DNA from: Rhizobiaceae bacterium
Lineage (GTDB): Bacteria > Pseudomonadota > Alphaproteobacteria > Rhizobiales > Rhizobiaceae
NCBI GenBank assembly: GCA_016742175.1
Contig: JACVCH010000012.1
Span: 57,023 to 97,022, forward strand
Length of the DNA: 40,000 nucleotides
Direction: 5' to 3'
Of the stretch, positions 1-18,630 are shown piece by piece. The translations under genes and the position numbers were made by a program. The notes beneath the pieces are model-generated. The model was not told the DNA's origin. It ran no database searches and saw nothing but the letters and a program-made list of their open reading frames with translations. The stretch's first letter is position 1; every line of letters begins with the position of its first letter.

Positions 1-2031
1 GGCTATCTCGCCTCGCGCGACACGATCTTGACGCGGGCGCAACGCGTCTGGGTGATCGGCCACCGCGAGCAGAGCGACAATGAAATCAAGGGCGCCGTGA
101 TCGAGATGGTCGGCGCCTATCTAAATGCGGCCCGCTGGGGAGAAGATGGCCTGCGCAAACGCTTCGAGCGTCGGGGTGCCGACGCCGGGATCACCGGCTG
201 GTTGCCCGCCTGGCATGACGAAGAGCAGAACGACAAGGAAGCTGAAGCATTGGCAGCCTTCGGCTTTTCCCCGCGCGGACATGCGCTTTTTCCGTTCAAC
301 CATCTAGCGATTGAGCAACTCGTCCAGCAGCATCTGACCGTGGCCACTCGGCTCGTCTTCAACCCGCGTCGGGTGATCAACGAAATCCTGCGCCGTCCAC
401 TCCTTATGCGGGGCACGTTCGTCAGCGGGAATTTCCCGCCGCCTGAATTCCACGGGGTGCGTCCCAATGTCTATCTTGCGGGACTGATCCGGCAGACAAG
501 TCAACCTGAGCCCGTCAAGCGGCGCCTTGCTTCCGCGTTAGCCGTTTGGGCCGGCAATGCGGCGAATCATGCTGCGCTTTCCCATGTGTCGCCAGCGATC
601 TTCTCAACCTTTTCGCTGCCGACGCCGGCCGAACTCGCCAACGTGGTATTCGTACCCGAACAGACACCAGCAATTGAGCCCGCCAGACCGACGCGCTACG
701 AAGACGCGCCGCCCGCGCCGACGCCGCCAGTTGCGACCGAGCAGGATCCGCAGGTCGCGGCATGGTCTACCAAGCTTGATGCTTGGGCTAGTGGGATAGA
801 ACTTGTTCAGGCCGATGCGCGCGCACTTCGTAACGCCTTAGCGGATATGCTGAAGGGGGCAATCAATTGGCCGACGCTACGTCTCCCGGATCAAGCGATC
901 GACGCTCGCTCGCTCTGGATCGCCGGAGTCCGCAACAACCCTGTGGTCGGGCGAATCCTCGTCGTTTGTGACAGCCACGAGGACGAGGACGGCACGCTCC
1001 GCGAAGGCTTCCTCGGCGCGCTGAGGTTCGGCTTCAACGGTCATCGCTGGAACTACCCTGAGGCGGACATCGACTATGTCGCAAGCGCTGCCATTATAGA
1101 CCGTCTGCTCGTCCAGTTGACCCCGAAACTCGTTGCGGAAGCGAATGCGCAGACCGCGGTGATCGGGCGCGCTCTGCTCAATCAATCGCGCATTGTGGGT
1201 CTATCCCCTCCGATTCGCCCTGCCGGGGCCGAACCACTTCTACGCGGGCTTTTCTCGCCGCCGCCGCAGGTCGAGACGCAAGCATTCGAAGAAGGATGGG
1301 ACCAACTTCGCGCCCAAGCGACGGGGTCGGTCAACGGCAAGAGTCCGCGCGCGGTGCTGCAGGAACTCCTGCTCGACCGCAGCGCAAGTTTCCAAGGGAC
1401 GGGTAGCAAGCCCTTCGCGGTCGACAGCCCTCGCCTGCTGGACGCGCTTGCCAACGACCTGCCGGCAGGGTCGCTTCCGGAAGGTTTGCCGGACGAGGCG
1501 CGGACCTTCATCCCGACCATGACAGACGCGCGCATCTGGGGGAAACTGCAGGCAGTCATCTCCAAGCTTCGTGTCTTCCGCAGTGAGATTGCGGACTATA
1601 TCGACGAAAGCCTAGACAAGGGCGCCTTTGTTGCCGACCTGCGCGAGATCATCCCTTTATTGCAGAAAACAAACTGTTGGCCTGCCAATGTCGCAATTAA
1701 GCTCAGCGAGTTCGAAATTCGCCTGGCGGAGTTTCAGACCAGCCGTTTCGTAGATTTGGTGGAAAAGACGACGACCATCGTCGACGGGGCGGACCGTGAA
1801 CAGATCCCAAAGTTGCTCAACGCGCTTGGGTCACTCGACTTGGGGTTGATACAGCGCACCATGTCGTTTCTGACTATAGCTAATGAGATCGTGTCTCAAG
1901 CGGAGCCCCGCGTCGCACAGCAGGAGGCGGTTCGAGGTCAATCGGATCCCAGCGCTGTTGCGGCGGAGATCGCCAACCTGCTCGAGGGCCTCATCGAAAC
2001 GCCGCACATGGCAGCGGAGACGACAGTATGA
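1..2031 (+). CDS. Large hypothetical protein, 5'-truncated by the window edge; first visible gene of the helicase/PLD operon
   Basis: Frame 1 is open from nt 1 (GYLASRDTIL...), so the TTG at 28 in the ORF track is not a real start. Stop TGA 2029-2031 overlaps the next ATG (ATGA at 2028-2031). I recognise no catalytic motif by eye. Confidence 0.6.
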   Translation, partial: GYLASRDTILTRAQRVWVIGHREQSDNEIKGAVIEMVGAYLNAARWGEDGLRKRFERRGADAGITGWLPAWHDEEQNDKEAEALAAFGFSPRGHALFPFNHLAIEQLVQQHLTVATRLVFNPRRVINEILRRPLLMRGTFVSGNFPPPEFHGVRPNVYLAGLIRQTSQPEPVKRRLASALAVWAGNAANHAALSHVSPAIFSTFSLPTPAELANVVFVPEQTPAIEPARPTRYEDAPPAPTPPVATEQDPQVAAWSTKLDAWASGIELVQADARALRNALADMLKGAINWPTLRLPDQAIDARSLWIAGVRNNPVVGRILVVCDSHEDEDGTLREGFLGALRFGFNGHRWNYPEADIDYVASAAIIDRLLVQLTPKLVAEANAQTAVIGRALLNQSRIVGLSPPIRPAGAEPLLRGLFSPPPQVETQAFEEGWDQLRAQATGSVNGKSPRAVLQELLLDRSASFQGTGSKPFAVDSPRLLDALANDLPAGSLPEGLPDEARTFIPTMTDARIWGKLQAVISKLRVFRSEIADYIDESLDKGAFVADLREIIPLLQKTNCWPANVAIKLSEFEIRLAEFQTSRFVDLVEKTTTIVDGADREQIPKLLNALGSLDLGLIQRTMSFLTIANEIVSQAEPRVAQQEAVRGQSDPSAVAAEIANLLEGLIETPHMAAETTV

Positions 2032-2762
2032 GCAACTCACTTCCTGCTCGCGTCAGGGCGCTTCGCGAACGGTTGGTTGCTCTTGACCGGCTTGGTGCGA
2101 ATGTCGAGGAAACCGGGCTGCTTGAGGATCTGCGCTTGGACCTCTCGCCGCCCGCTTCCGAGCTTAACCGCGCCTTAGCCCAGCGCGCGCTGCTGATGGG
2201 GTCCGGTATCGAGACGCCAGAGCCGCCGACGCTCGAGACGGCACGAAAGCGAGCGGCGGCGCTGCTCGAGCGGTTCACCACGGAGCGGAAAGCGGCCACG
2301 CTAAAAAAGGGGACTGGATGGGCCAATCTGCTCAAGGAAACGAAGGCGGCCTCCGCCGATGTCTCTGTCTCGGTCATGCGCACTTGGAAAGGATATCGAC
2401 AGACCGTTTTTACCGGCGAGGCTCCAGCATTGGTGAAAGGCCGTATCGCCTTCACGCCGGCGAACAGTGCCGCGTACACGACCTATGAACAGCTCCACCA
2501 GACGTTTCGATCTGAATTTGAGAAACTCCCGGCGGACAAGGCCGCGATCGAACGAGTGAAGGCACTGGCGGCACGACTGACAGAGACGGCGAAAGAGTTC
2601 GATTTCGACGTTCCGGCGGACGTGAAGCGCTACCTCGAGGCCATTCAGAGCGGGGGAGCGAAGCTCGACCTTCTGACCGACGCGGTCCTCAAGTGGCTTA
2701 GAGAGAATGATGCCTTTGACAACTACCGCATCGTGCCGCGGAGCCCAGATGGAAGCCGATGA
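2028..2762 (+). CDS. Hypothetical 244-aa protein, helix-rich and charged, operonic with the helicase
   Basis: ATG 2028 overlaps the upstream stop. Its own stop at 2760-2762 lies 14 nt inside the helicase gene. No recognisable motif. Confidence 0.6.
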   Translation: MSNSLPARVRALRERLVALDRLGANVEETGLLEDLRLDLSPPASELNRALAQRALLMGSGIETPEPPTLETARKRAAALLERFTTERKAATLKKGTGWANLLKETKAASADVSVSVMRTWKGYRQTVFTGEAPALVKGRIAFTPANSAAYTTYEQLHQTFRSEFEKLPADKAAIERVKALAARLTETAKEFDFDVPADVKRYLEAIQSGGAKLDLLTDAVLKWLRENDAFDNYRIVPRSPDGSR

Positions 2763-5700
2763 AGCCCTACTCCTCGCCGTGCTGGATGAGATCGAACAGC
2801 GTGAGGCTCGGCTCCTTACGTGGGGCCTGGTCGACGGCCACGTGTCTGTCGGCGAGTTGCACGGCATCGTCAACATGCTGCTCGACGATCCGAAAATAAA
2901 CGGTGGGGTCTCTTTTGCGGACGCGAGTCAGGTCATGGCTGGACTGACCGATCGTGCCCTTCTGTTCGACATCGGCGAGGAAGCAGGCTCGCAGTACCGG
3001 TCGCGGATGGCGGAAGGAGTGAGGCTCCTGTTCCGATTGCGACAGCTGTTTCCGAAACATCGGGGTCCGATAGGTTGGCAGGCCGCGCCAACCCTTGTAG
3101 CCGACTTCCGTTTTATTTGGCGCCGCCGCCGCTATCCGCGGCGCGAGATTGAAGCTGCGGCGTCGCTCGCGAAGATTGCATCAGCAACGCCTGATCAGGC
3201 TGCGCGCGCCGCCCTTTCGGCGCTCATCGAAAGCTATGGGCCGCGATTTGCGCTCGCAGGCTTTCAGGTCGCTGCGGCTGCGCGGATCCTTGGCGGCTTC
3301 GAAGGTTCGCGGTCGACGGCTACGTTGGTTAGTGCCGGGACCGGTAGTGGCAAGACTTTAGCCTTCTACCTCCCGGCGCTCTCGCGTGCCGCCTCGCATA
3401 TCCAGCGTGACGCCGTGGGCGAGCGTTGGGTCAAAGTTCTCGCGCTCTATCCGCGCAACGAACTTCTAAAGGACCAGTTCGCCGAGGTATACGGTCAGGC
3501 GCGCCGTCTTGATGCCTTGCTCGCGGGGCGCGGACGCAGGAAGCTCCTCATCGGCACGTTCTTCGGTCCGACGCCCCGCTCTGCCGAGAAAGCGCACGAG
3601 GCGCGCAGCGGTTGGCGGCAAACGTCGGCTGGTCTCATCTGCGAGTATCTTCGGTGTCCCTCGCCGGAATGCGTCGGCGACATGGCCTGGCGTGATGCCG
3701 ATCGGCGCGCCGGGCGTGAGCGGCTCGAATGCCTCGGATGCTCAGCTGCAATCGAGAGCGACGAGATTATTCTCACCCGTGAGCGGCTGCAGCGGGAGGC
3801 GCCGGACATCCTGTTCACCACCACCGAAATGCTCAACCAGCGCATGGGGGACGACCGCTTCCGGCATTTGTTCGGGATCGGCGAGCGGGCACAGCGACCG
3901 GTGGAGATGATGCTGCTGGACGAGGTCCATACTTATGCCGGCAGTTCCGGTGCGCAGGTGGCTTTCCTCTTGCGCCGCTGGCGACGGCTTCTCCGGCGGC
4001 ATGTCAGCTTTGTTGGTTTGTCGGCCACACTCAAGGACGGCGCCCGTTTCTTTGCACAGTTGACTGGCTTGTACGAGCAGGCGTCGGTCGAGATCACTCC
4101 CCGCAACAGCGATATGATCGCGGAGGGTGCCGAGTATTTGCTCGCGCTGCGCGGTGATCCCGTGTCTCGCACGGCCTTATTGTCGACGACGATCCAAACG
4201 GGAATGCTCCTCTCCCGGCTCCTCGACGCGCCGGATGAACGGAAGAGCCAGGGCATCGTCGGCGAGCGAGTCTTCCTGTTCACCGACGATATCGACGTCA
4301 CGAACCGCATGTATTTCGCTATGCTCGATGCCGAGGGTCGGCGCAGCAGCGGCGCGCCCGACCTGGCGAACAAGCCGGACGGCGGTCTCGCATCGCTGCG
4401 GCGACCGCTGCCCGTCCAGCATCGCAAACTCCATGGACAGGATTGGGAAGCCGTGGTGGAGATCGGTCACAGTCTCCAGCCGCAGGACCGCAAGTCGGTT
4501 GGGCGGGTCATGTCGATGGACCCAGGGGTTGGCAACAATCTCGACATCATCGTCGCGACCGCGTCGCTCGAGGTGGGATTCAATGATCCCCGTGTCGGCG
4601 CGGTCATTCAGCACAAGGCACCCCGTGACGTCGCGCAGTTCCTGCAGCGCAAGGGTCGCGCTGGCCGATCGCGCCGGATGCGTCCTTGGACCGTTGCGGT
4701 GCTCTCGGACTATGGCCGTGATCGCCTTGCCTATCAGGGCTATGACCTTCTATTCGATCCAGAATTGCCGTTGCGCACGCTCCCGATCGGCAACCGTTAT
4801 GTGATGCGCATGCAGGCGGTCTATGCCACGCTCGACTTTCTGAGCCAGATGTTGGATTCCTCACGCCAAGGAAGCGTGTGGCTAGACCTGTCGACCAGCA
4901 CGGACAGCAACTATCAGCGAGCCCGCCAGACGGCGCTGGCCGGTCTGATCCGCCGCATCCTCACGATCCCGGCCGAACTCGACCGCTACACCTCCTATCT
5001 CGCCTCGTCGCTGAAAATTGAAGAAGACGCGGTCGCGCCTCTGCTCTGGGACCATCCGCGACCACTGATGACGCAGGTTCTGCCGACTGCGCTTCGGCGC
5101 CTCGAAAGCAACTGGCGTGCTTGGGGCCAGCCGGGCGAGGATCATCAGGTCTTCAATTCGCCGCTGCCCGAGTTCGCGCCGGCCAACCTGTTCAGCGATT
5201 TGAACGTACCCGAAGTCGATATTGTCCTGCCGCAACCGGGCAGCGCGACGCCCGAGCGGGTCGCCATGCCGATCGCACAGGCCCTGCGCGAGTTCGCCCC
5301 TGGCCGCGTATCGCGGCGATACGGCATCAGCCATGCGTTCGAGCGTCACTGGTTATGCCCGGCGCTCGACCAGAACCGCGAGCAGGCTGTGCCGCTTGAG
5401 TCATTTGCCCGTCTCGAACGCCTCGGCGATTGGCGCGTCAACGTCGGCGGTTTGCTGCGGCAGGTCCCCGTCTATCGGCCGCGTGTTCTCGAGGTTCAGC
5501 CGCCACCGGGCACCTTGGGCGATACCTCCAACGCTCGTCTTCGCTGGCGCAGTCAACTTGTCGCACGCGATGAGGGCATGGTACTCGATCCGCCGCGTGG
5601 GAGTCCTTGGACCCCGCTGATCGAGGATGTGCGGTTCTACTCCCACGAGGGACTGAGCCCGATCGAGGTCCGCCGTCTGGCGCTTGGAAGTGACGCGGGC

Positions 5701-7302
5701 ATTCGCTTCCGCGATGGCGGCTCGCTCGCCAAGGAGTTTCACTTCGAGGTCGGAGGAGAAGCTGTCGCGCTCGGGTTTAGTCTAGCGGTCGATGCTATGT
5801 GCATCCGCCTGCGGTTCCCCGACGCGTTGTGGTCGAACCTCGGAGCGGAGTCGGATCCGCGCTATCGGGCGATGCGCACGGCGCGCTTCCACCATCTTGC
5901 GTTGCATGGGCAGCTTGGCGAACACGTAGACAATCTGTTCGCACGCGAATGGCTAGCGCATCTGATGCTTGCAGCCCTCAGCAACGAATCGATGGCGCGT
6001 GGTATCTCGTTGCGGGAAGCAGCCGCACGGCTGGCGGACGGAAACGCAGAGTTCAGCCTCGATCAGACGCTCAACATCTTGTTTCAGTCCGCGGTTGTCG
6101 ATGATGCCAATGCCCAGGGCAACCAGCAGGACAAGTTGCGCCAAGATCTGGCCAGTTACGTCGCTGATCGGCAAGTGGTTGCCAGCCTGTTCGACTTAGC
6201 TGCCGTCCTTTGGACGCCTATCGATCCAAACTGGGAGCCATGGCTGCGCGAGCGATACGCTTCGACCGTCGGCGCGGCTGCGCTCAGCGCCATTTCAAGC
6301 CTTTGCCCGCAAATCGATAGCGACAGCCTCATCCTCGATGTGACAGCCGGCCCGCGCGAAGATGATGACGTGCTCGCCGGTATACCCAATGGCGAGATCT
6401 GGATTAGCGAGATGACGCCGGGCGGCAATGGGCAGATCGAGGTGGCGCAGAGTCAATATGTCGAGGATCCACGACGCTTCTTCAGCCTCATGACCGCAGC
6501 GTTGCGCGACAATGACTTCTCGCTCAGCGATTATCAACTGGGTCGCTTCCTCACCTCGGTCGTGGAGAGCGATAGCGCCGATCCGTTGCCGACTGCGGTG
6601 CGTGCGTTCCGAAGTGCCTCGGGCGCGGAGGAAAACCACGCGAGCTTTACCGCACTGCGTCACACGCTGGCGGAGGAAGGCTTTGTCACTTTTCACGCAT
6701 TCATAGTCGCGCTCGCCAATCGCATCCTCCGGCCCGGAACTAGCAGCGACAGCGACGCCTTCTTTCTCGACGCGATGCGCCTTTGGGATGCCGAGGAGGT
6801 GCGGCTCGGTATCGAACTGGATGCCCGCGTGCTCGCGCACCGTCTCGCGCGCTCCGACGACATCGATGCGGCGCTGGCTCTCTCCGGCATGGACCCGCCG
6901 ACAGTCGATCCGGGCCAGTGGCGCTTCGGCGTGATCTATGGACTGCTATGGCCGCGCGGCGCGCACATCCGGCAATCGGGCCTTCGACCCTATTCGCCAT
7001 TCGCCGATTTGCCATTGCCTGATCCGCTGCTGTTGCGGTCCTACTTGGCGGAGGATGCCGCGCTGATCGATGTCGAAGCGGAGGGCTGGCAGGAGCTTTG
7101 CCTCGACCGCCTTGCGGAGGTAGGCGCGGCGACGCTGATCTGCCGAATGGCGGCTTCATCGCTGCTGGCGGACGCGCTGAGCTTCCTGGCTACCAACCCC
7201 GCTCAGTCAGGCTATCTCTCGGTCTTTGCCCGGGTGCAGGCGGTGCGGCGGGTGGAGAACGCCTTCCATGTCGTACTCGATGTCCCGGAGGCGCTGCAAT
7301 GA
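2749..7302 (+). CDS. Very large SF2 DExH-box helicase (1517 aa) with an inserted Cys4 zinc-ribbon-like element and a ~900-aa C-terminal extension; DpdJ-like by context
   Basis: Motifs read in the translation: I AGTGSGKT (nt 3334-3357), Ia LYPRNELLKDQ, Ib TTTEML, II LLDEVH (DEVH nt 3919-3930), III LSAT, V VATASLEVGFN, VI QRKGRAGR. Cys cluster CEYLRCPSPEC...ECLGC at nt 3640-3741. Start moved to ATG 2749, downstream of ORF-track start 2707, to limit overlap with the upstream gene. Stop 7300-7302 overlaps the next ATG. Confidence 0.9.
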   Translation: MEADEALLLAVLDEIEQREARLLTWGLVDGHVSVGELHGIVNMLLDDPKINGGVSFADASQVMAGLTDRALLFDIGEEAGSQYRSRMAEGVRLLFRLRQLFPKHRGPIGWQAAPTLVADFRFIWRRRRYPRREIEAAASLAKIASATPDQAARAALSALIESYGPRFALAGFQVAAAARILGGFEGSRSTATLVSAGTGSGKTLAFYLPALSRAASHIQRDAVGERWVKVLALYPRNELLKDQFAEVYGQARRLDALLAGRGRRKLLIGTFFGPTPRSAEKAHEARSGWRQTSAGLICEYLRCPSPECVGDMAWRDADRRAGRERLECLGCSAAIESDEIILTRERLQREAPDILFTTTEMLNQRMGDDRFRHLFGIGERAQRPVEMMLLDEVHTYAGSSGAQVAFLLRRWRRLLRRHVSFVGLSATLKDGARFFAQLTGLYEQASVEITPRNSDMIAEGAEYLLALRGDPVSRTALLSTTIQTGMLLSRLLDAPDERKSQGIVGERVFLFTDDIDVTNRMYFAMLDAEGRRSSGAPDLANKPDGGLASLRRPLPVQHRKLHGQDWEAVVEIGHSLQPQDRKSVGRVMSMDPGVGNNLDIIVATASLEVGFNDPRVGAVIQHKAPRDVAQFLQRKGRAGRSRRMRPWTVAVLSDYGRDRLAYQGYDLLFDPELPLRTLPIGNRYVMRMQAVYATLDFLSQMLDSSRQGSVWLDLSTSTDSNYQRARQTALAGLIRRILTIPAELDRYTSYLASSLKIEEDAVAPLLWDHPRPLMTQVLPTALRRLESNWRAWGQPGEDHQVFNSPLPEFAPANLFSDLNVPEVDIVLPQPGSATPERVAMPIAQALREFAPGRVSRRYGISHAFERHWLCPALDQNREQAVPLESFARLERLGDWRVNVGGLLRQVPVYRPRVLEVQPPPGTLGDTSNARLRWRSQLVARDEGMVLDPPRGSPWTPLIEDVRFYSHEGLSPIEVRRLALGSDAGIRFRDGGSLAKEFHFEVGGEAVALGFSLAVDAMCIRLRFPDALWSNLGAESDPRYRAMRTARFHHLALHGQLGEHVDNLFAREWLAHLMLAALSNESMARGISLREAAARLADGNAEFSLDQTLNILFQSAVVDDANAQGNQQDKLRQDLASYVADRQVVASLFDLAAVLWTPIDPNWEPWLRERYASTVGAAALSAISSLCPQIDSDSLILDVTAGPREDDDVLAGIPNGEIWISEMTPGGNGQIEVAQSQYVEDPRRFFSLMTAALRDNDFSLSDYQLGRFLTSVVESDSADPLPTAVRAFRSASGAEENHASFTALRHTLAEEGFVTFHAFIVALANRILRPGTSSDSDAFFLDAMRLWDAEEVRLGIELDARVLAHRLARSDDIDAALALSGMDPPTVDPGQWRFGVIYGLLWPRGAHIRQSGLRPYSPFADLPLPDPLLLRSYLAEDAALIDVEAEGWQELCLDRLAEVGAATLICRMAASSLLADALSFLATNPAQSGYLSVFARVQAVRRVENAFHVVLDVPEALQ

Positions 7303-7838: not shown

Positions 7839-10108
7839 TCGACCATTTGGCCGCGTGTGAGCAGAAGTGGCTGGAACGCTTCTTTACGTCGCCGAACGAG
7901 CTTAGCTGGACATCGCTCGTCGACGGGTCAGCGCCTGCAGACCAGGCAGACCAGGTTCGGCGGTGGCTCTCGCATCTCGGCGCCAAGCGAACCAACGCGC
8001 CGCTCGTTCTCCCATTTGTGCGCGGCGGAGAAGTTACGGGCTGGTATGCTACCACCCAGGGGCCGGCAGGCGGGTATGAGCTGAGGGATGAACTCAATGC
8101 TTGGCTCGGCCCCACTTGGCTGAGCCGCTTCGAGCGAGTCCCGGACGATGCTGCCGATCCGATGGCAACTGCGCTTCGCCGTCGCTTCGAGGGGACGATC
8201 TATCGCTTCACCGGCCCGGACGCCGCCGCCATGCGAACGATCACGGGTCGACTGAACGATTTTGCCGCGTTGCTTGAACTCAAGCCGAGCGCGCCGCGTG
8301 CGCTTATCCGCCCGGTCGGTGCGATACGGGGCGATTTCGAGCGAGCACTGCTGGCCGGCGATGAGGCACGGGCCCAGGCGATGATCGCCGAGTTGAAGCA
8401 GACAGGCCGCCTCAACGAGGAGAACCTCAAATTTCTCGAGGTTCGGCTGAGCGCTGGCCTGGGTTTTTGGCCGCAGATTGCGCGCGATCACTGGCTCATT
8501 AAGACCCTCGCGGAGCTTGCGGCTCCGCCGCAGATTGTCGCCGATCTCATCGAGGCGCTCTACCGAACTTATGTCGACGGCTCTGAGGCGAGCGGCGACC
8601 GGGCTGCGCTGCGGGAAGCCTTTTCCCTCCATGTCGCGACCCCCTATCCCAAGCTTTTTGCCTCCCGTCGCGGCATTCGCGCACCCCGGGTGGTCAAGGC
8701 ATTCGCGTTGTTTGAGCAGTTGCAGGCGAGCCCCGACCCGGCGATCGTCGCCTCGTTGCTCGCCTTATTGCCTGCGGGAACGGACACCGCGCTGTTCGAA
8801 ACGGCTCCTGTCCCAGAATCCAAGCCTGCAACTGTCACGACAATGGACGAGGCAGACGAAGCTTTTGACGACGGGCAGATCGATCGCGCTTTTGAATTTT
8901 ACCTGCGGTTGCCGCCGAGCAGAAAGACGATTAGCAGGTTGGTGTCCTGCGTAGGCTCGATCGGCACTGACGAGGCTCGGGATCGCCTGCTTGGGCTAGT
9001 TGAAGGTTCCAATCCGGCGGTTCTCGACTCCTTGGCACCCGCCGTTGCGACAAAGATCGAAAGCCTGAGGCAGTGGCAGACTGACGATGCTGCGCCCGCG
9101 CAACCTGCAGCCGAGGTAACACCCTGGTTGCGGTGGGCTGAGCAGTTGCAGGCGGGCCAAAATCTCGCCGCTGCCGAACGCGACGCGCAAACCGCTGCCA
9201 CAAGTTGGGATGCGTCGGCTGTAAGAGATAGCGGCAAACTCGCTCAACGTTTTGCCGATATCATCGGAGGTCTCGACGGCGAGGCCAGCGCTGTCAGTCG
9301 CACTGCGGTACCGCAAATCTTCGCAAGCTTCTTCCACGACGAGGACAAGGTGTCACCGGCCGCGAAGCCGATCGCATCCATGCTGTTTCTGTTGATCGCG
9401 ATGGATGATTTTCTTTCACGACCCGACCTGGACCTGATCGCCCGATTGACGACTTTGCTGATCGAGCAGGGATTGTCATCGTCCGAATACGTATCGCTGA
9501 TGGGTGATCTCGAAGATGTGCAGAAGCGGATAGGCTCCTACGCCTATCTGCCTTGGAGTCTGGACCTCAGCGAGGCGCTAGCTATCCTGCCATGCCCGTC
9601 AGACGACGCGCGCGACGCGCGGCTGAGACTCTTTCTGCAAGTACTCGGCCAGACTGCTAGCTTCGCCCATCGTCTGATGCCGGCCGATCTGCTGCCATTA
9701 GAGACGCTAACTAAAGACTACGGTGTCGGCGAGGAGGCTATCACGGCGCTAAGGCGAAGCGCGGAGGTGGTGGAGGCTGACGCACCATCCCCGCCCAGCC
9801 TTGGTGGGAAGACGATTGGCATCTACACACTCGCGGAGGCGGCCGGAATTCGCGCCAAGTCAGCTCTCGAGGCGCTGTTCCCAGGCTGCAAGGTGGTCAT
9901 GAATTCGGATCTAGTCGCAACTGCGCAACTTACGAGTCTAGCGAAGGCGGCCGATTTGTTCGTGTTCACCTGGAAGAGCAGCAGCCACCAAGCCTTCTAC
10001 TGCGTTAAAGATGCCTTGGCGGGCAAGGATCCGATCTGGGCGCCAGGCAAGGGAACAGCGAGCATCTTGCGAGCAGTCCTCGACCATCTTAGAGGCACCG
10101 GTGACTGA
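7835..10108 (+). CDS. Hypothetical 757-aa protein, last gene of the helicase/PLD operon; C-terminal ~100 aa resemble a DUF2325-type domain (from memory, unverified)
   Basis: ATG 7835 overlaps the PLD stop (ATGA 7835-7838); the ORF-track start 7649 would lie inside the PLD gene. The C-terminus ...KAADLFVFTWKSSSHQAFYCVKDAL... resembles the aDlvv..t..vsH.....vK pattern I recall for DUF2325. Confidence 0.6.
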   Translation: MIDHLAACEQKWLERFFTSPNELSWTSLVDGSAPADQADQVRRWLSHLGAKRTNAPLVLPFVRGGEVTGWYATTQGPAGGYELRDELNAWLGPTWLSRFERVPDDAADPMATALRRRFEGTIYRFTGPDAAAMRTITGRLNDFAALLELKPSAPRALIRPVGAIRGDFERALLAGDEARAQAMIAELKQTGRLNEENLKFLEVRLSAGLGFWPQIARDHWLIKTLAELAAPPQIVADLIEALYRTYVDGSEASGDRAALREAFSLHVATPYPKLFASRRGIRAPRVVKAFALFEQLQASPDPAIVASLLALLPAGTDTALFETAPVPESKPATVTTMDEADEAFDDGQIDRAFEFYLRLPPSRKTISRLVSCVGSIGTDEARDRLLGLVEGSNPAVLDSLAPAVATKIESLRQWQTDDAAPAQPAAEVTPWLRWAEQLQAGQNLAAAERDAQTAATSWDASAVRDSGKLAQRFADIIGGLDGEASAVSRTAVPQIFASFFHDEDKVSPAAKPIASMLFLLIAMDDFLSRPDLDLIARLTTLLIEQGLSSSEYVSLMGDLEDVQKRIGSYAYLPWSLDLSEALAILPCPSDDARDARLRLFLQVLGQTASFAHRLMPADLLPLETLTKDYGVGEEAITALRRSAEVVEADAPSPPSLGGKTIGIYTLAEAAGIRAKSALEALFPGCKVVMNSDLVATAQLTSLAKAADLFVFTWKSSSHQAFYCVKDALAGKDPIWAPGKGTASILRAVLDHLRGTGD

Positions 10109-10183
10109 GTTAGATCGAACAGGTATGACCACCGCTTGCCAATAGGGCCTATGCCACCTTGTGGCGTTCATAAATAGTGAACA

Positions 10184-10756
10184 TCAGGGCCTCAGATTCC
10201 ACACCCGATTGTCCCGCGATCGAACCCATGCGAGTACCGGCAGCGCCGCGACGACCATCCACAGTTTGCCAAGAACCTGACCCGGGAGAAGGTCGAGCCC
10301 CCCGAAAGCGAGGGTGAGAAAGACGATGCTATCGATGATTAAGCCTACGATACTGCTGGCGGTGGCAGCCAAGATCAAACCGCGACGCTGAAGCGGAGTG
10401 TATACTAGCAGATCTGCAACCTCCGACAGAGCGAAGGCTGCCGTTGAGGCGACGATCAGTGCCGGGGGTGCGAAAAATACAGATAGGATCGCCCCGATAG
10501 CGATGGCCGCAACCGACCAGGCGAGACCGAGCCGCCTTTGGACAAGATCGCGTAAGACAAGCGCTGCCCCGATGGCGAGGACCCCGCTTGGCGCGTAAAT
10601 TCCAGGCGCAACTGGGATGAGGCACGGACCATCTGGCACGCAGACTGTGCCCACATTTCCGATCATCCAATTGGCAAGCGGGATCGTGCATGCGAACGCC
10701 GCCAAGAATAAGCCACCCTCGATACGTTGCCTTCTATCAAGGTTACGCAATGGCAT
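10184..10756 (-). CDS. YhhQ/VUT-family membrane protein (queuosine-precursor transporter family)
   Basis: Polytopic hydrophobic protein. Segments align by eye to E. coli YhhQ: [24 protein letters not shown] vs ASFMAYALGQILDVHVFNRLRQ, and [20 protein letters not shown] vs ASTLFGNVSDTLAFFFIAF. Start is the internal ATG 10756, giving a 14-nt overlap with the queC stop at 10743. Confidence 0.7.
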
Positions 10757-11462
10757 TCTCCAGAGCCGCAGTGCGGAACTTTTCATATCCACGAGCGCGC
10801 AGATCACAAGCGGGACATTCGCCGCAGCCGCGCCCCCATTCGTTGATATGCTCGACGTCACCATTGTAGCAGGTCAACGTCCCATCCCGGATCAGTTCGA
10901 CGAGAGGAGCACCACCCAGTTTGTCTGCAAGCGACCACGTCTCAGCTTTGTTGATCCACATCAATGGCGTTTCCAAAACAAACCGGCTCTCCATGCCGAG
11001 ATTGAGGGCGACTTGCAGAGCTTTGATCGTGTCGTCCCGGCAGTCGGGATACCCGGAAAAATCTGTTTCGCAGACTCCGGTGACCACATGCTTCAGGCCT
11101 CGGCGATAAGCGACCGCTGCGGCGAAGGTAAGAAATAAGATGTTGCGGCCAGGCACAAACGTATTCGGCAGACCAGATGACATTGTCGCAATTTCAACTT
11201 CGCGCGTTAAGGCGGTATCGCTGATTTCGCCAAGCACAGCGAGATTGAGCACCCGATCGTCGCCAAGCCTCGCGGCCCATCCCGGGAAGGCTTTCGCCAG
11301 GCCGGCGCGGAATTCGATACGCGCATCGAGTTCCGCGCGGTGACGTTGTCCGTAGTCAAAGCCAATTGTCTCGACGCGGTCAAAGCGGTTCAGCGCCCAG
11401 ACGAGACACGTCGCGGAGTCTTGGCCGCCCGAGAAAAGTACGAGTGCACTGCTATCCGTCAT
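10743..11462 (-). CDS. queC: 7-cyano-7-deazaguanine (preQ0) synthase QueC
   Basis: N-terminal PP-loop [15 protein letters not shown] and C-terminal Zn motif [10 protein letters not shown]. Start ATG 11462 overlaps the queD stop (ATGA 11459-11462). The ORF-track N-terminal extension lies inside queD. Confidence 0.92.
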
Positions 11463-11833
11463 TGCGTGTTCTCGGAACCATAATAGCTGCAGGCGCCCGT
11501 GTCGCTGTCGCGGCGAACGGTGACCCGCCACAAGTTCGGACAGACCGGCGCGACTCTTTGCCAAATCCAAAATGACAGATTTTCGATCGTACTTGGACCA
11601 AGATCGGCAATCTCGTCCAAAAGGCGGTGATCAAGCCCATCGCGGGCCTCTTCGAGAGCTTGTTCAAAAAGCGCCAGGTCTACGATCATGCCGGTACGCG
11701 GATCTGGAAGACCGCGCACGGCGACTTCTGCTCGATAGGAATGTCCGTGAATGCGTCGGCTGGGCTCAACGTCCACAGTTCGTTGGAGCGTGTGAGCGGC
11801 GTCAAAACGAAATTCCCTGCTGAGTTCGTACAT
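11459..11833 (-). CDS. queD: 6-carboxy-5,6,7,8-tetrahydropterin synthase QueD
   Basis: 124 aa with FRFDAAH...RIHGHSY (PTPS/QueD metal-binding His motif). Start overlaps the queE stop by 1 nt (TAATG at 11831-11835). Confidence 0.9.
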
Positions 11834-12465
11834 TATCGAATGCCCATGAATTTGTGTGTTTGCAACGATAATCGCCAGCGCGGGTGCTGCAGGCAGTAGG
11901 CAATCGCTGCCGCAGTATTGGTCTCGCGCGCGATGTCATCGCGAGGTTGAAGAAAAAAATGTTCGAAAGCGAGATTTTCGAACGAAAGCGGGTCTACTCC
12001 TTCTTGGGGAAAGACCAGCTTCAACTCATTCCCTGAGGTTTGGATTAAGGGCGTTTCACCCTTGGGACTGACAGTAATCCAGTCGATCTTGGTCGGAGCG
12101 GGAAGCGATCCGTTGGTTTCAAGCGCAACCTCGAATCGAGCCGCATGAAGAGCCGAGACAAGCTCCTCTCCCACCTGCAAAAGCGGTTCGCCGCCGGTCA
12201 GAACCACGAACCGGTCTGTGTCTCCACCGCCCCACATCGCCTCGATGCCAGCCACAAGTGATTGAGCATCCACGAAGCGCCCGCCGCCGTCGCCATCGGT
12301 ACCGACGAAGTCCGTATCGCAAAACTTGCATGCTGCTGTCGCCCGATCACGCTCCCGCCCGCTCCACAGATTGCATCCGGCAAAACGACAGAATACAGCA
12401 GGGCGCCCCGTATGGCGTCCTTCGCCTTGAAGGGAATAGAACATTTCCTTGACGGCATAGGACAT
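11833..12465 (-). CDS. queE: 7-carboxy-7-deazaguanine synthase QueE (radical SAM, short Burkholderia-type)
   Basis: MSYAVKEMFYSLQGEG...CRFAGCNLWSGRE...CKFCDTDF...LQTHKFMGIR is near-collinear with my recollection of Burkholderia multivorans QueE. Start is the internal ATG 12465, 2 nt after the upstream stop at 12468-12470. Confidence 0.92.
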   Translation of the reverse strand: MSYAVKEMFYSLQGEGRHTGRPAVFCRFAGCNLWSGRERDRATAACKFCDTDFVGTDGDGGGRFVDAQSLVAGIEAMWGGGDTDRFVVLTGGEPLLQVGEELVSALHAARFEVALETNGSLPAPTKIDWITVSPKGETPLIQTSGNELKLVFPQEGVDPLSFENLAFEHFFLQPRDDIARETNTAAAIAYCLQHPRWRLSLQTHKFMGIR

Positions 12466-12467
12466 AC

Positions 12468-13556
12468 TCAGGCCGCCTTTTCGGTTTCGGCCAGGCGTCG
12501 CTTGAGCACCTGGACGAGATGAAAAGACAACTGGCGCACATCGGCCGGAACGTTCTGGAGCCCATTCCAACGCCGACGCTCTGCTCCAAATTCCCACTCG
12601 CCCGCGCTCCAGGCGGTTTTTCCTTTGAGCAATCGCAGACCAGCGGCGAACTCGTCCCGAGTCGAGGCGCCCGTGACGCTATTCAAAAAATCCATGACAT
12701 AGCCGAGAGCAATGATGCCGGTGCCATGGAGCAACCGAGATGACTTCGGTGTGTGTCCGATCCAATCCTCCGCGAAGACGTGCCGAACAGCGTGATAGAA
12801 TTCACTCATCGTGGTCACTCCCTTCTCCAGCAGGAGTTGATCCTCACCGGCGTAGAGGCGGAGCGTCCCGTCACTGAGGGAATTCATAATTACCCTTTGG
12901 AGGACGGTATCGCGGATGACGCCTTTGGGGTTTGTTTGCTGTTTGATCAGCCCTCTTAGTGAGGATCCTTCGCGATAGTTCAGCGCTTCAGTAACAAGAG
13001 CGGCTTGCGACCGACTTGACATTCTTGCCGGAAGATCTCCGACTTTAGGCAGAAGCTCATAAACAAGCGCTTTTGGCAGCGGGCGGGTGTTGTTGACCAA
13101 GATGAACTGCTTTTGAAGCTCCTCCTCGGTTTCGCAAAGAAAGCCCGAAACCAGCACCTCGAACTCGCGTTCGCGAAGTTCTGAAAGTGCTGTAAAGCGC
13201 TGTTGCCCATCCACGATCCAGCCGGGAGGGCCATTGGAGGTATCCACAACGAGTTGGTGAAGACGGCCCTCCGGACTCGTTGCTGGCTCCAGCCAGGCAC
13301 CGCCCATGAACGCGACCACGATGGCGTTCGGCAAGATCGCGTTTGGCTTTTCAAGGTAGTCGCGGATCTCGCGAATGTGGCCTGCAATTTGAGGCCTTTG
13401 AAAGCCTTGCAAGGTGCCGCCAGTATCTCGTCCCGCTCGCTCAATGCGAGCAATGCGCGCTACCTCGGAAGCTTTCGCCACGAACGTGAAAACTGCCAGC
13501 TTGTCGCTCTGGATCGGCGCAAGGGCGTCGAACCTAATATGGTGGGAATGGCTCAT
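12468..13556 (-). CDS. dpdB: DGQHR-domain (DndB/ParB-like) protein, DpdB-like, paralog 1
   Basis: Motifs LQGFQR, PNAIVVAF, WIVDGQQRFTAL, KQFILVNNTRPL. Start ATG 13556 overlaps the dpdA stop (ATGA 13553-13556). Confidence 0.75.
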   Translation of the reverse strand: MSHSHHIRFDALAPIQSDKLAVFTFVAKASEVARIARIERAGRDTGGTLQGFQRPQIAGHIREIRDYLEKPNAILPNAIVVAFMGGAWLEPATSPEGRLHQLVVDTSNGPPGWIVDGQQRFTALSELREREFEVLVSGFLCETEEELQKQFILVNNTRPLPKALVYELLPKVGDLPARMSSRSQAALVTEALNYREGSSLRGLIKQQTNPKGVIRDTVLQRVIMNSLSDGTLRLYAGEDQLLLEKGVTTMSEFYHAVRHVFAEDWIGHTPKSSRLLHGTGIIALGYVMDFLNSVTGASTRDEFAAGLRLLKGKTAWSAGEWEFGAERRRWNGLQNVPADVRQLSFHLVQVLKRRLAETEKAA

Positions 13557-14842
13557 ACAGTTTCCTGTCGAAATTCGGATAGGTGCGTGTGAAAGACGTG
13601 AAGGTTGTGAATGCCGCGGCGCTTGTTACGATTGGATGTTCGGAAAATTACTGCCTCAACACCGCTCTCCCGGCAAACCCTGCAACTGCAGTTGTCCCAA
13701 GGTCGATCGCCAAGGGTTTGCGCATAGGCTTTTCGCTGTCGCTTAACGGCATCAGCACGACGCCCGGGCGATGCCTCTTCGTCCCAGTTCAGAGCGGCCC
13801 AATAGTCCATCACACTATCAAGCGCCGGCTCCAAGGCCACGTTGCCATCAGCATAAGCCCGCACATGACGCAGGGCAGCGTCCTCGAGACGTCGCGCATC
13901 TTCCTGGTTGAGACTACCTTCCAGCGCCTTTTGCTTGAGCTTGTTGTTTTGAGTGGCCTGGGGAATGCGAATTGCCGTGTAGTAAGACAGGTCGCCGCCG
14001 GGCGTGCGCGCCCAATAATTCTTTCGGGCATCTTTAAACGCTCGCAAAAGAGGTGACGTCGTATCGAAGCTGGTTACTTTGAACCTGTCGAGCACGGCGA
14101 GTTCCTCGATCTTTCCAAAGCCCAAAAGGTGCAGCCGAACGTGCTCGGGGATTGCGTCCCGCAGGGCGCTTAAGACACGGCTGATTTGTTCAATCCTCAA
14201 AGGTACTGTGCCCCCAATCGCCAAGTAGTCGTAGCCCATATCCGCCAAGTTGCACGCCGCTTGTGCCATGCTTTCGGCAGACCATCCTTGGATGACGCCC
14301 ATCGGCGTGAACTGGGGTCCGAGTGCCTTCGCCGCTTTGTGGAACTCGCTAGCATTCTGGAGGGTAATTTCGTATCGCGAGCGCACATCCTCAGGAACGT
14401 CGCTCAAACGCCGCGTTACGCTTATGTCGTCGAAATCGAAGATAAGGTGATCCGGTGAGCATCCGTGCGTAAAGCCGCCGTCGGCGTAAAACTCGGCTGT
14501 GTCGTCCGCGTGGTAGGGTGGTTCCGGCAGATTGCGATACGAAAAGGCGCCGCAGTCACCCAGCATGATGCTCCCGGGGAATCGATCAAGGGGATACCGC
14601 AAGAATCGACGAGCGCCTTCTCGACGAAACCGCATGAGCTGCGCCTCAGAGTACTTCCCGGGGTGCCCAATGTCGCCGACGATGCCGCGAGATACCAGAA
14701 TCCCGTCATAAGGGGCCTGATCAAGGAACTCATGCGGGTACGCGTCGTCGCGATGGACCGCCCGGCCCTTGCCGTTTCGATCTTCAATGAAATCGTATTC
14801 GGGGTCGATAGTGTCGACGCTGTCGGCAAATACGAACCGCAT
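13553..14842 (-). CDS. dpdA: tRNA-guanine transglycosylase paralog, DNA-guanine transglycosylase DpdA-like (429 aa)
   Basis: TGT-fold signatures: GDCGAFSY, YLAIGGTVPL, and C-terminal Zn motif CSCRVC followed ~22-28 residues later by HNLHVFH. Sits between two DGQHR genes and upstream of queE/D/C. Start is the internal ATG 14842 (MRFVFADSVD...), a 1-nt TAATG overlap with the upstream stop. Confidence 0.85.
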   Translation of the reverse strand: MRFVFADSVDTIDPEYDFIEDRNGKGRAVHRDDAYPHEFLDQAPYDGILVSRGIVGDIGHPGKYSEAQLMRFRREGARRFLRYPLDRFPGSIMLGDCGAFSYRNLPEPPYHADDTAEFYADGGFTHGCSPDHLIFDFDDISVTRRLSDVPEDVRSRYEITLQNASEFHKAAKALGPQFTPMGVIQGWSAESMAQAACNLADMGYDYLAIGGTVPLRIEQISRVLSALRDAIPEHVRLHLLGFGKIEELAVLDRFKVTSFDTTSPLLRAFKDARKNYWARTPGGDLSYYTAIRIPQATQNNKLKQKALEGSLNQEDARRLEDAALRHVRAYADGNVALEPALDSVMDYWAALNWDEEASPGRRADAVKRQRKAYAQTLGDRPWDNCSCRVCRESGVEAVIFRTSNRNKRRGIHNLHVFHTHLSEFRQETV

Positions 14843-15981
14843 TACGCAACCTTCGCAAAGGCATGCATATGGTCGAGGCGCGCCAAATGACCGGATAACA
14901 TTTTGATGTCGCGTCCAACGTTTTGAATGTCGTTCCAGTCTCGCTGAAGTTCCGTCCACCTGCCTGTCGTCCAACGGCAATATGGAGCGATCCGTGACAG
15001 AGACTGTGTCGCGTGGAGGAGCAGGTCCGTCCCTGGCGCTGCACGCGACATGATCCGGTCCATCAAGAGGCTCATCGCCTCAATGCCCGCTGAGTGCATG
15101 AGTCGACTTTCTGTGGCTGGACGGCCCCACGCTTCCGGAAACACCGTGCGCACAGCGCTCCAGTAGGCGACAAGTGTGCGGTACATGGCATCAATGTCGG
15201 CGGGCGATTCTGCTGTCGCCTTGTATGGAGCAAGACAGCCAAGCGCACTGTTGATGCTGTTTCTGATCGCTTTGATCAAGGCCGAGTCCGTCACGACTGC
15301 AGTGGCAGAATCCTCGGACAGTCTCTTGATCAAGCCGAAGAACGGAGACTCTGCAGACGTTTGCAGGAGATTGACCAATTCACTGGGAATTTTCCGAGAC
15401 GAAAGGTCACGCGGGAAGGTGGTGTCCACCTCGGGGAGCAATTCGTTGATCAAGCGAGGATCAAGGGGCCTGGCCTTATTGACCAAGATGAATTGCTCAC
15501 GATGAACTGACAGTTCTTCCGATACGAAGGCAATAACAGGAACCGGGAAGGTTTTGTTCTGAGCCTGGGAAAGCGCGAGTGAGCGCTGCTGCCCATCAAC
15601 GATCCAGGCCGCCTTTGGACCATTGATGGGCAGGGGGATCCGCAGCGTCCCCGCTTCACAAGAGCGTACATCACCGCTCGGCCGTTCGCCCCGCGCCTGC
15701 GTAAAGCGCGCCCGGGGTGAAATGGCGAGAATGATAGCATTCGGGAAGAGCACGGGACCTTGATCTAAGAAATCTGTTATCGCTTGAACGTGACTCAGGA
15801 TTCCTTTGCGCTGAAATCCCTGCAGCCCTCCCTCGCTATCGCGGTGGACACGGCTAATTTCGGCAATTTTCAGCAGGTCAGCACCAGCCACAAAAAACGC
15901 GTAGACCGCTTTGTCCGCCTGTTCCGTGCGAACTGCCCGTACTGCGAGCGTAGGCTCCGCTGCTTTGCGCGGGCGTGTCAT
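14842..15981 (-). CDS. DGQHR-domain (DndB/ParB-like) protein, DpdB-like, paralog 2
   Basis: Same motif set as 12468-13556: LQGFQR, PNAIILAI, WIVDGQQRSLAL, EQFILVNKARPL, SRLMHSAGIEA. Start ATG 15981 overlaps the upstream stop (ATGA 15978-15981). Confidence 0.75.
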   Translation of the reverse strand: MTRPRKAAEPTLAVRAVRTEQADKAVYAFFVAGADLLKIAEISRVHRDSEGGLQGFQRKGILSHVQAITDFLDQGPVLFPNAIILAISPRARFTQARGERPSGDVRSCEAGTLRIPLPINGPKAAWIVDGQQRSLALSQAQNKTFPVPVIAFVSEELSVHREQFILVNKARPLDPRLINELLPEVDTTFPRDLSSRKIPSELVNLLQTSAESPFFGLIKRLSEDSATAVVTDSALIKAIRNSINSALGCLAPYKATAESPADIDAMYRTLVAYWSAVRTVFPEAWGRPATESRLMHSAGIEAMSLLMDRIMSRAAPGTDLLLHATQSLSRIAPYCRWTTGRWTELQRDWNDIQNVGRDIKMLSGHLARLDHMHAFAKVA

Positions 15982-16922
15982 GACAACTTCCTTTCGGTCA
16001 AAGCAGCTTGATAGAGCCGACTAAATCGCGCTTGCTCACAGGCAACTCCCTCTTCGTCCCGAAGCGCGCGCAAGATGCGGGCGACGCCTGTTTCGGTCTG
16101 GAGGCGAACCCCAATCAACTCAAGGATTTCCGCATCAGTCCGCCGCGGCCTAAGGGGTCTCGCAGGCGGTGTCACATTGTCTAAGGCGCTAACGACAGCC
16201 GCATGGTCAGCGTCACGGTCTTGATCATCATTGCCTGAGACCAGCCCTACAAAGTGATGCAGCGCCCGCTGAGAAAAGTCCGCCCGCGTCCCGGGACTGA
16301 TCGCGTCAAAACGCGCGTCGTAAGGCACGAGCGCCGGATGCAACGCTGCCGGCAGCACGGGAGCCAATGAAGCGCCAAATATTCGCAATCGCTTCAAAAC
16401 GTCCGGCCGCAGCGTACCGAGGCTCTCGCCCACCATTTGGGCATATGGACGTGTTAGCGCGATCAGAATACGCCCGGAGGCCGCGCCAACAACATCATCC
16501 CACTGATCCGACAGAGGAGACGATAGAAGACCAGAGAACCAAGCCGCTGCGTCGAATTCACCTCGGACTTTAGCTGCGACAGACTCCGCATGGCCAGAAG
16601 AGACCGTTAGCCCGTACGTTGGCACGTGGCGATCGGCAGGCACCAGACCCAACCCGGCCGAAAGCACGTAGAGCCTTGCCTTAGCGTTCTTTGCTGCCTT
16701 GACCGCCAGCGAGAACCCGCGCCCCGCATAAAGATCCGCCACAGCGATTTCCGCTGGCAGAGTCTGAACTTTCTTAATCCACGCAGCTTGGACTGCGTCC
16801 TGCGGGCCTGGTGGCAAAGCTGCCGGCGTCGAGCAGAACTGAGGTCGCGCTCTTTTTCGAAACGCACAGATTGTGATGATCACATCAACTTTCTTTGGTG
16901 TCGTTTCCCTTGGCGCGTTCAT
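15978..16922 (-). CDS. Hypothetical 314-aa protein, first gene of the modification operon (occupies a DpdC-like position; identity unverified)
   Basis: Long ORF translationally coupled to the next gene. Contains ...ARLYVLSAGLGLVPADRHVPTYGLTV..., reminiscent of the LSxxYGL...PY pattern of DUF328/DUF6884-type proteins. That comparison is from memory and is weak. Confidence 0.6.
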   Translation of the reverse strand: MNAPRETTPKKVDVIITICAFRKRARPQFCSTPAALPPGPQDAVQAAWIKKVQTLPAEIAVADLYAGRGFSLAVKAAKNAKARLYVLSAGLGLVPADRHVPTYGLTVSSGHAESVAAKVRGEFDAAAWFSGLLSSPLSDQWDDVVGAASGRILIALTRPYAQMVGESLGTLRPDVLKRLRIFGASLAPVLPAALHPALVPYDARFDAISPGTRADFSQRALHHFVGLVSGNDDQDRDADHAAVVSALDNVTPPARPLRPRRTDAEILELIGVRLQTETGVARILRALRDEEGVACEQARFSRLYQAALTERKLS

Positions 16923-17400: not shown

Positions 17401-17553
17401 GGTGTCTGATAGATTTCGTTTATCGTAGAGGGGCTCTTTAGGCGGAAAACCTAATTGCGTTCGCCCTCAGCTTACCTCTCTCAGAATCTCAGGCGATCCC
17501 CTCTCGACAATAGGAGTTCTTATTTTAGCCAGCGTCTGGGAGCGGATTTTGGG

Positions 17554-18476: not shown

Positions 18477-18630
18477 GGTATTAAGTCGGATCGAACAGAA
18501 GAGGCTTGCGTTCTGCTGAACAGGGGTCGAGCGCGCCTGAGTGGCCTCCATCAGGTCCTCGATAGCTGGGGTCGATACGAAGCGGTTCTTCGAACGCCGT
18601 TTTACCTTGTTGGTCCACTATAGCGGACAT

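Follow-up and report, generated by a model that had tools for sequence, protein, structure and literature searches.

The window analysed here is a stretch of 40,000 nucleotides (nt) from the metagenome-assembled genome (MAG) of a Rhizobiaceae bacterium (GenBank assembly GCA_016742175.1, contig JACVCH010000012.1, positions 57,023 to 97,022 of the forward strand). Its first 16,922 nt hold two converging, overlap-coupled operons whose genes belong to the families of the Dpd system—a restriction–modification system that marks DNA with 7-deazapurines. The plus-strand operon bears restriction genes and the minus-strand operon bears modification genes, including those for the precursor 7-cyano-7-deazaguanine (preQ0). 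An earlier note made from the sequence alone had described such a convergent island, and the open reading frames (ORFs) of the window place its two operons as follows (aa, amino acids).

1..2031, plus strand: dpdH, the 3′ two thirds (676 codons) of a gene that runs past the left window edge; NCBIfam NF041065, E 4.6e-118; PADLOC DpdH models
2028..2762, plus strand: dpdI (244 aa); NCBIfam NF041066, E 5.3e-34, aligned 2–239 of 239; PADLOC DpdI, E 1.6e-6
2749..7302, plus strand: dpdJ, YprA-family DExH helicase (1517 aa); NCBIfam NF041067, 1850 bits (cut-off 800), full length; PADLOC PDLC02896, 1627 bits
7299..7838, plus strand: dpdK, small PLD/HKD-type nuclease (179 aa); NCBIfam NF041068, 195 bits (cut-off 100); Pfam PLDc_2
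7835..10108, plus strand: dpdD (757 aa), closing the restriction operon; NCBIfam NF041061, 620 bits (cut-off 300), 1–704 of 704; PADLOC DpdD models
10109..10183, no strand: gap between the converging operons, 75 nt, from the gene coordinates
10184..10756, minus strand: yhhQ-like (Vut_1/COG1738) gene for a putative preQ0 transporter (190 aa); Pfam Vut_1, 40.6 bits (cut-off 27.2)
10743..11462, minus strand: queC, preQ0 synthase (239 aa); TIGR00364, 207 bits (cut-off 150)
11459..11833, minus strand: queD-like gene, 6-carboxytetrahydropterin synthase (124 aa); TIGR03367 QueD, 68 bits (cut-off 89); TIGR00039, 77 bits (cut-off 125)
11833..12465, minus strand: queE, radical-SAM 7-carboxy-7-deazaguanine synthase (210 aa); TIGR04508 queE_Cx14CxxC, 338 bits (cut-off 240), full length
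12468..13556, minus strand: dpdB, "DpdB-down", downstream of dpdA (362 aa); NCBIfam NF041060, 377 bits (cut-off 300); PADLOC PDLC02811, E 8.7e-118
13553..14842, minus strand: dpdA, DNA-guanine transglycosylase (429 aa); NCBIfam NF041059, 531 bits (cut-off 200); Protein Data Bank (PDB) entry 7UI4, E 1.7e-87
14842..15981, minus strand: dpdB, "DpdB-up", between dpdC and dpdA (379 aa); NCBIfam NF041060, 444 bits (cut-off 300); PADLOC PDLC02811, E 8.7e-130
15978..16922, minus strand: dpdC (314 aa), opening the modification operon; PADLOC PDLC02815, E 9.9e-78, aligned 8–308 of 312; Pfam DUF6884, 32.4 bits (cut-off 30)

The identities of these genes are established by profile models: NCBIfam, PADLOC, Pfam and TIGRFAM together assign a family to each of them, and most match their own Dpd or Que model over the full length and above the curated cut-off. 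The Dpd-type reading of the earlier note is borne out by DpdA, both DpdB copies, DpdJ, DpdK and DpdD, which all score above cut-off, and by the match to 7UI4; queC, queD, queE and the YhhQ-type transporter that it had named are found as TIGRFAM or Pfam matches. What it had left as an unassigned 314-aa lead gene is DpdC, and its 757-aa terminal gene and other large unknowns are DpdD, DpdH and DpdI by NCBIfam and PADLOC. It had also seen no methyltransferase, and no methyltransferase domain appears in the Pfam, NCBIfam or PADLOC scans of the island genes.

All 13 frames are unbroken and cover their profiles from end to end, and their translational coupling is kept. The plus-strand junctions are overlaps of 4, 14, 4 and 4 nt (dpdH/dpdI, dpdI/dpdJ, dpdJ/dpdK and dpdK/dpdD), those of dpdH/dpdI and dpdJ/dpdK being ATGA overlaps. 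From dpdC on, the minus-strand junctions read ATGA (4 nt), TAATG (1 nt), ATGA (4 nt), a 2-nt gap, TAATG (1 nt), ATGA (4 nt) and a 14-nt overlap. The description of all junctions as ATGA/TAATG-type or at most 2 nt wide hence holds for nine of 11, but not for dpdI/dpdJ and queC/yhhQ, whose 14-nt overlaps are of neither type. Eleven coupled junctions in sequence together with family matches at E 1e-34 to 0 are far above chance. The start of yhhQ was put at ATG 10756 because homologs in seven other genomes align only from Met37 of the long ORF onwards. In the convergence gap (10109–10183), the terminator scan gave no terminator-like site and the fold does not differ from that of shuffles (z −1.69); promoter and terminator scans over 9.9–19 kb gave counts at or under shuffle expectation.

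The source MAG carries these genes, on a contig of 112,554 bp, as part of the proteins MBL0935974–MBL0935982 (locus tags IBJ07_14610–14650), of which MBL0935974 (DpdD), MBL0935980 (DpdA) and MBL0935982 (DpdC) are deposited as "hypothetical protein" and both DpdB copies merely as "DGQHR domain-containing protein". The record is older than the Dpd models of NCBIfam, and a re-annotation is possible.

DpdA, two DpdB paralogs and the preQ0 genes

The best solved-structure match of DpdA is the DNA-guanine transglycosylase of Salmonella enterica serovar Montevideo (7UI4, E 1.7e-87), compared with E 3e-4 for tRNA-guanine transglycosylases (TGTs). The protein is a member of the TGT superfamily (Pfam TGT, 34.8 bits), but reaches only 28–36 bits on tRNA TGT models and does not come near their equivalog level: TIGR00430 and TIGR00432 give 28.3 versus 306.75 and 31.1 versus 350 bits, with just residues 133–268 aligned. 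The earlier note had named two outcomes that would speak against a Dpd system—a TGT paralog grouping with tRNA TGTs and plus-strand proteins matching housekeeping repair families—and neither is the case, as DpdA sides with 7UI4 and its own model and the plus-strand proteins match Dpd models.

DpdA was aligned to 7UI4 with the published numbering taken as chain position minus 20, so that GDCGAF reads Asp95…Phe99 as in PMC10164549. Asp95 (general acid/base) and Asp256 (nucleophile) are essential in S. Montevideo DpdA (PMC10164549); their equivalents are conserved here, as are those of Phe99, Asp130, Gly206/207 and Leu236. The motifs GDCGAF, S-x-DH and TSFDTT are present, and the CxCxxC…H zinc site that had been noticed by eye is kept as C385, C387 and C390, followed by GIHN. 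The base-contacting His181 of the S. Montevideo enzyme is the point of difference: its equivalent is Gln185, the Gln of GVIQGW. Gln occupies this position in 13 of 13 DpdAs from loci with two dpdB genes, whereas S. Montevideo and Enterobacter cloacae, whose enzyme is ~38% identical to the one of the window, bear His. With a tiny sample of single-DpdB comparators, the Gln may be a lineage signature. We take Gln to be the state of bacterial tRNA TGTs (Gln203 of Z. mobilis), in which case the specificity need not change.

Related loci were collected by a DpdJ scan with one genome per species, which returned 30 loci, and gene positions were read from a tblastn map. Nearly all of these loci are alphaproteobacterial, with identities to the window of up to 91% for DpdJ and up to 81% for DpdA.

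Both dpdB copies are translationally coupled to the dpdA gene that they flank. They are the two DGQHR-family proteins of the earlier note, and the motif reads DGQQR in both (residue 129 of DpdB-up, residue 116 of DpdB-down). This motif is tied to nucleoside triphosphatase (NTPase) activity in the ParB-like fold and is kept in both copies, and both paralogs look catalytically competent. They share 35% identity with each other; close homologs of DpdB-down are abundant and named DpdB by NCBI. In all 10 related loci with the whole modification operon in range, dpdA lies between two dpdB genes, and plasmid records show two copies in nine alphaproteobacterial cases and one in E. cloacae. A neighbour-joining tree splits the copies cleanly by position into an "up" and a "down" clade, which show the same main locus groupings, with DGQQR in 26 of 26 sequences. 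We conclude that the two paralogs probably diverged anciently and that the dual arrangement, far from being a peculiarity of the locus, holds as a rule across this mainly alphaproteobacterial lineage. The second DpdB is the sole real departure from the characterised Salmonella system.

Two further assignments were considered and not adopted. The SspE-like nicking motif EHxxP is absent from all 27 DpdB sequences, which argues against one paralog being a modification-sensing nuclease. Placing the single enterobacterial DpdB in either paralog clade was rejected, as the E. cloacae protein is about equidistant from both (34–39% identity).

Other dpdB-like genes were met on the way. The DpdBs on Variovorax, Euzebya and Nonomuraea plasmids were discarded as single-copy comparators for the Gln/His position, since they are orphan DpdB-like genes that lack an annotated dpdA in their vicinity. 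On plasmid 2 of Variovorax sp. SRS16 (L033, 8923–10490), a DpdB-annotated gene is followed by a DUF6884 (DpdC-family) gene and adjoins a type I-E CRISPR-Cas operon; no dpdA is listed nearby in plasmid gene tables that are incomplete. Of the orphan genes on the Euzebya and Nonomuraea plasmids (L034, L035), the one of L034 lies among cytosine methyltransferases. At ~23370 on the plus strand, opposite in strand and just past dpdC, Pseudomonas sp. ABY48 (L029, DpdJ 38% identical to that of the window) has a third dpdB-like gene, which falls in the "down" clade.

The remaining genes of the modification operon are recognised with differing clarity. For DpdC, NCBIfam yields nothing above cut-off, YaaA being its sole and marginal match (17 bits versus 339), and similarity to the E. 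cloacae gene that takes the dpdC position stays local (34% over 59 aa). The syntenic gene in the queD position on a Caulobacter plasmid is annotated as 6-carboxytetrahydropterin synthase. The yhhQ-like gene is kept after queC in seven related loci at 63–70% identity. In Phyllobacterium endophyticum (L003, 17488–17705), a second, fragmentary yhhQ-like sequence—the C-terminal ~70 residues in two pieces—lies between dpdD and the intact yhhQ.

The restriction operon and related islands

The window begins inside dpdH: the frame is open from base 1 and aligned to positions 358–1012 of the 1014 of NF041065, and the score of 396 bits misses the cut-off of 450 only through this truncation. What may lie to the left is seen in the closest relative (L019, DpdJ 91% identical), with DpdE (686 bits), DpdF (936 bits) and DpdG (317 bits) directly upstream of a full-length DpdH (852 bits). 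A Methylocystis MAG (L012) apparently has the same dpdE-F-G arrangement upstream of dpdH, judged by ORF sizes. In the genome analysed here, dpdE-F-G are presumably placed likewise. The earlier note had seen only one helicase, which is probably an effect of the window edge.

This one visible helicase is the 1517-aa protein DpdJ, with Pfam DEAD and Helicase_C domains and the motifs GTGSGKT and DEVH. The HKD nuclease noted beside it is DpdK, whose HxK…GSMN…E residues are invariant across 29 aligned relatives. DpdD has no Pfam domain, and the position of dpdI between dpdH and dpdJ is kept in 27 related loci. The whole order dpdH-I-J-K-D is conserved in 26 of the 30.

S. Montevideo Dpd (dpdA-K) has the same families DpdA, B, C, D, H, I, J and K, and shares with the window the catalytic Asp residues and zinc site of DpdA and the DGQQR motif of DpdB. 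On E. cloacae pPOL9A, a gene in the dpdC position, dpdA and dpdB converge on dpdE-F-G-H-(I)-J-K-D—the same layout, with dpdD last—and the Prokaryotic Genome Annotation Pipeline (PGAP) names dpdA, dpdB, dpdD, dpdK, dpdJ, dpdH, dpdG, dpdF and dpdE there. The window differs from both in having two DpdB paralogs around dpdA instead of a single one after it, in carrying queE, queD, queC and the yhhQ-like gene inside the operon, in the Gln for DpdA His181 and in a very divergent DpdC, of which a 59-aa core is in common with the E. cloacae gene. Most of this has precedents. Genes for preQ0 synthesis in some dpd clusters and yhhQ embedded in certain clusters were described in a 2016 review (PMC5699537); a 2025 GATOR-GC survey of 2335 unique dpd islands found QueD domains in 78% and YhhQ among the neighbours, and additional copies were most numerous for dpdB, with 801 over these islands (PMC12235509). 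Of the non-canonical composition that the earlier note had proposed, the second DpdB does differ from the Salmonella system, but the layout (pPOL9A), the embedded preQ0 genes and yhhQ and the extra dpdB were already published.

Other defence systems share single components. DISARM, Druantia and BRIGADE have a YprA-family helicase in common with DpdJ; a PLD-type nuclease is also part of DISARM and BRIGADE, the latter reported from haloarchaea only (bioRxiv 10.1101/2025.09.15.676423). Weak DrmA, DruE and DrmC matches appear in PADLOC, with 47 bits for DrmA and 70 for DruE versus 1627–1850 for DpdJ; the DpdJ and DpdK models score 20–40 times above Drm or Dru models. Among the island genes, PADLOC gave no DrmMI/MII or DruA-D matches and no DISARM methyltransferase. 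Dnd/Ssp phosphorothioation (DndB, SspE) likewise places a ParB-like DGQHR-type NTPase fold beside a DNA-modification enzyme. The DGQHR_dnd_1 model (TIGR04172) gives the two DpdB copies 54 and 40 bits versus a cut-off of 450, and the island genes contain no dndACDE or sspABCD genes and yield zero PADLOC Dnd/Ssp matches.

Essentially the same order—dpdH-I-J-K-D converging on queC-queD-queE-dpdB-dpdA-dpdB-dpdC—is found in the alphaproteobacterial islands of the Methylocystis MAG, Roseococcus (L014), Gluconacetobacter (L004) and Ensifer (L021). Such islands differ in sequence divergence, in the presence or absence of queD and yhhQ (the latter in seven of the related loci, Ensifer among the named ones) and in a mixing of modification and restriction halves between lineages. 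Gluconacetobacter and Methylocystis display this mixing in opposite directions. In the former, DpdJ is 89% identical to that of the window, but DpdA only 48%, DpdB-up 51% and DpdB-down 50%; in the latter, DpdJ is 67% identical, but DpdA 81%, DpdB-up 86% and DpdB-down 84%. Both DpdB copies thus follow DpdA in divergence and not DpdJ, and hence we regard both as part of the modification module. The GC content is 0.565–0.58 in the modification half and 0.60–0.65 in the restriction half. Discordant histories and differing GC are clear evidence that the two halves recombine independently, as what appear to be separate modules.

A plasmid of Caulobacter sp. S6 (NZ_CP073079, L001) carries the same cassette, dpdC-dpdB-dpdA-dpdB-queE-queD-queC, at 71.7% nucleotide identity (DpdA 81%), without yhhQ; PGAP gives the name DpdB to both copies. 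Its restriction set is divergent: by PADLOC, positions 3148–18807 encode DpdF, DpdG, DpdH and a 2102-aa DpdJ (PDLC02895), neither DpdK nor DpdD was recognised on this side, and two proteins of 762 and 230 aa are without matches. PGAP leaves these restriction proteins as hypothetical, helicase-related or AAA.

Proposed mechanism and alternative readings

The region is best read as a complete-type Dpd restriction–modification island, of an architecture common in Alphaproteobacteria, whose left part is cut by the window edge; we put the probability of this reading at about 0.93. It was in S. Montevideo that the functions of DpdA, DpdB and DpdC and the involvement of dpdD-K in restriction were established (PMC10164549, PMC5699537), and the chemistry of the former and the restriction phenotype of the latter would carry over by orthology. 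In the pathway proposed for the island, QueD, QueE and QueC would make preQ0 out of the FolE product, and the YhhQ-like permease may import salvaged preQ0. DpdA would exchange specific guanines of double-stranded DNA for preQ0, a step that would need ATP hydrolysis by the ParB-like DpdB. DpdC would then hydrate the nitrile to dADG (2′-deoxy-7-amido-7-deazaguanosine). The restriction operon—presumably dpdE-F-G, then dpdH-I-J-K-D—would attack DNA without the mark, with the superfamily 2 (SF2) helicases or translocases DpdE, DpdF and DpdJ and the BrxC-like DpdH/I ATPase acting in restriction and the PLD-family DpdK as the probable nuclease.

Several observations weigh against this assignment. DpdC is known just from the PADLOC subfamily model and a marginal DUF6884 match, with a 59-residue core common with the enterobacterial gene; because its recognition is weak and the protein divergent, the final mark may be 2′-deoxy-preQ0 (dPreQ0) instead of dADG, although the divergent DpdC presumably still makes the amide. 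QueD falls under both of its cut-offs (68 versus 89 and 77 versus 125 bits), DpdI under that of NF041066 (118 versus 150 bits), and YhhQ, with 40 bits, under the 51 of the queuosine precursor transporter model TIGR00697. The island contains no folE, and dpdE, dpdF and dpdG of this genome fall beyond a window that starts inside dpdH. What the sequence shows is gene identity, unbroken frames and conservation of catalytic residues and synteny; modification of this DNA and actual restriction are predicted.

Among the alternatives, the one that survives best is a refinement of the Dpd reading, and we hold it only tentatively. The locus might represent a distinct Dpd subtype, in which DpdB-up and DpdB-down pair as an obligate heterodimeric ATPase, a clamp around DNA or a loader that works with a Gln181-type DpdA and replaces the Salmonella homodimer, and in which the choice or the loading of target sites differs. 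Salmonella DpdB is a homodimer (PMC10164549), which makes a DpdB heterodimer a reasonable hypothesis. The flanking of dpdA by two dpdB genes in 10 of 10 loci points the same way, as do the two clean positional clades with their shared main locus groupings and universal DGQQR, the divergence of both copies along with DpdA and not DpdJ in the Gluconacetobacter and Methylocystis loci, and the Gln in 13 of 13 DpdAs at the position of His181 in S. Montevideo and E. cloacae. On the contrary, each paralog could homodimerise, or one of them could be regulatory; the Gln, presumably the tRNA TGT state, need not mean a change of specificity; and the single-DpdB comparators number two. Extra dpdB copies, moreover, were already reported as common (PMC12235509). 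An equally tentative suggestion is that the dual-DpdB/Gln181 cassette is functionally distinct and, self-sufficient through preQ0 synthesis and import of its own, moves as a unit between different restriction cassettes.

A second alternative takes the composition at face value, as that of a non-canonical variant of Dpd whose restriction machinery is reduced or altered—one helicase, a novel lead gene and novel unknowns. In its favour, a single helicase gene is all that the window shows, and Pfam gives DpdC, DpdD and DpdH no clear domain save the marginal DUF6884. However, the supposed unknowns are DpdC, DpdD, DpdH and DpdI by NCBIfam and PADLOC, the window begins at position 358 of the DpdH profile, relatives have dpdE-F-G upstream, and E. 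cloacae shows the same layout, which makes such a variant very unlikely. We give similarly little weight to the idea that the island is a decaying, non-functional remnant: an IS5 transposase fragment adjoins it, three of its genes are labelled hypothetical in GenBank and the source is a MAG, but 13 intact frames are full-length to their profiles and both the catalytic motifs and the tight translational coupling are kept.

Hardly tenable, finally, is a minus-strand operon that serves a tRNA queuosine/archaeosine-type pathway, its TGT paralog acting on tRNA beside an unrelated helicase–nuclease defence operon: queC, queD, queE and a YhhQ-like transporter do also serve tRNA queuosine synthesis and the protein is indeed of the TGT superfamily, but tRNA TGT models give 28–36 bits against cut-offs of 307–350 and DpdA 531, the best PDB match is a DNA-guanine transglycosylase, two dpdB genes and dpdC are translationally coupled to the paralog, and its pairing with dpdD-K recurs across many genomes.

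As a discovery, the Dpd island of the window matters little, as the Dpd system, the convergent layout, the embedded preQ0 and yhhQ genes and the extra dpdB copies have all been published. Its practical value is one of correction: DpdA, DpdC and DpdD of the MAG are deposited as hypothetical, and the apparent oddities can be put down to where the window ends and to families that escape recognition by eye. The dpdB-dpdA-dpdB sandwich, with its two old clades and the change of His181 to Gln, suggests a testable heterodimer model of modest interest to Dpd biochemistry; the independent recombination of modification and restriction halves is a second modest point for this field.

Surroundings of the island

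Past dpdC, the window continues with ~2 kb without credible genes up to the first housekeeping gene, and this stretch holds one further feature.

17912..18477, no strand: truncated remnant of an IS5-family transposase; blastn matches on 182 plasmids to genes annotated as IS5 transposase, up to 83.6% identity over ~570 nt

The plasmids matched include rhizobial ones, the remnant contains no intact ORF, and the kilobase in which it lies is the lowest in GC of the window (0.54). This stretch is probably the boundary of the island. No tRNA gene that could have served as integration site was found in the 40 kb, and neither a preQ1 or other riboswitch nor any other Rfam family reaches the gathering score in the whole window.

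Beyond the IS5 remnant follow ordinary catabolic and transport genes. Positions 26210–39912 of the window hold two similar sets—each with a thiamine pyrophosphate (TPP) enzyme, a short-chain dehydrogenase, an NAD epimerase and a xylose-isomerase-like TIM barrel protein—at ~27–33 kb and ~35–40 kb, flanking an IclR regulator, which suggests paralogous pathways.

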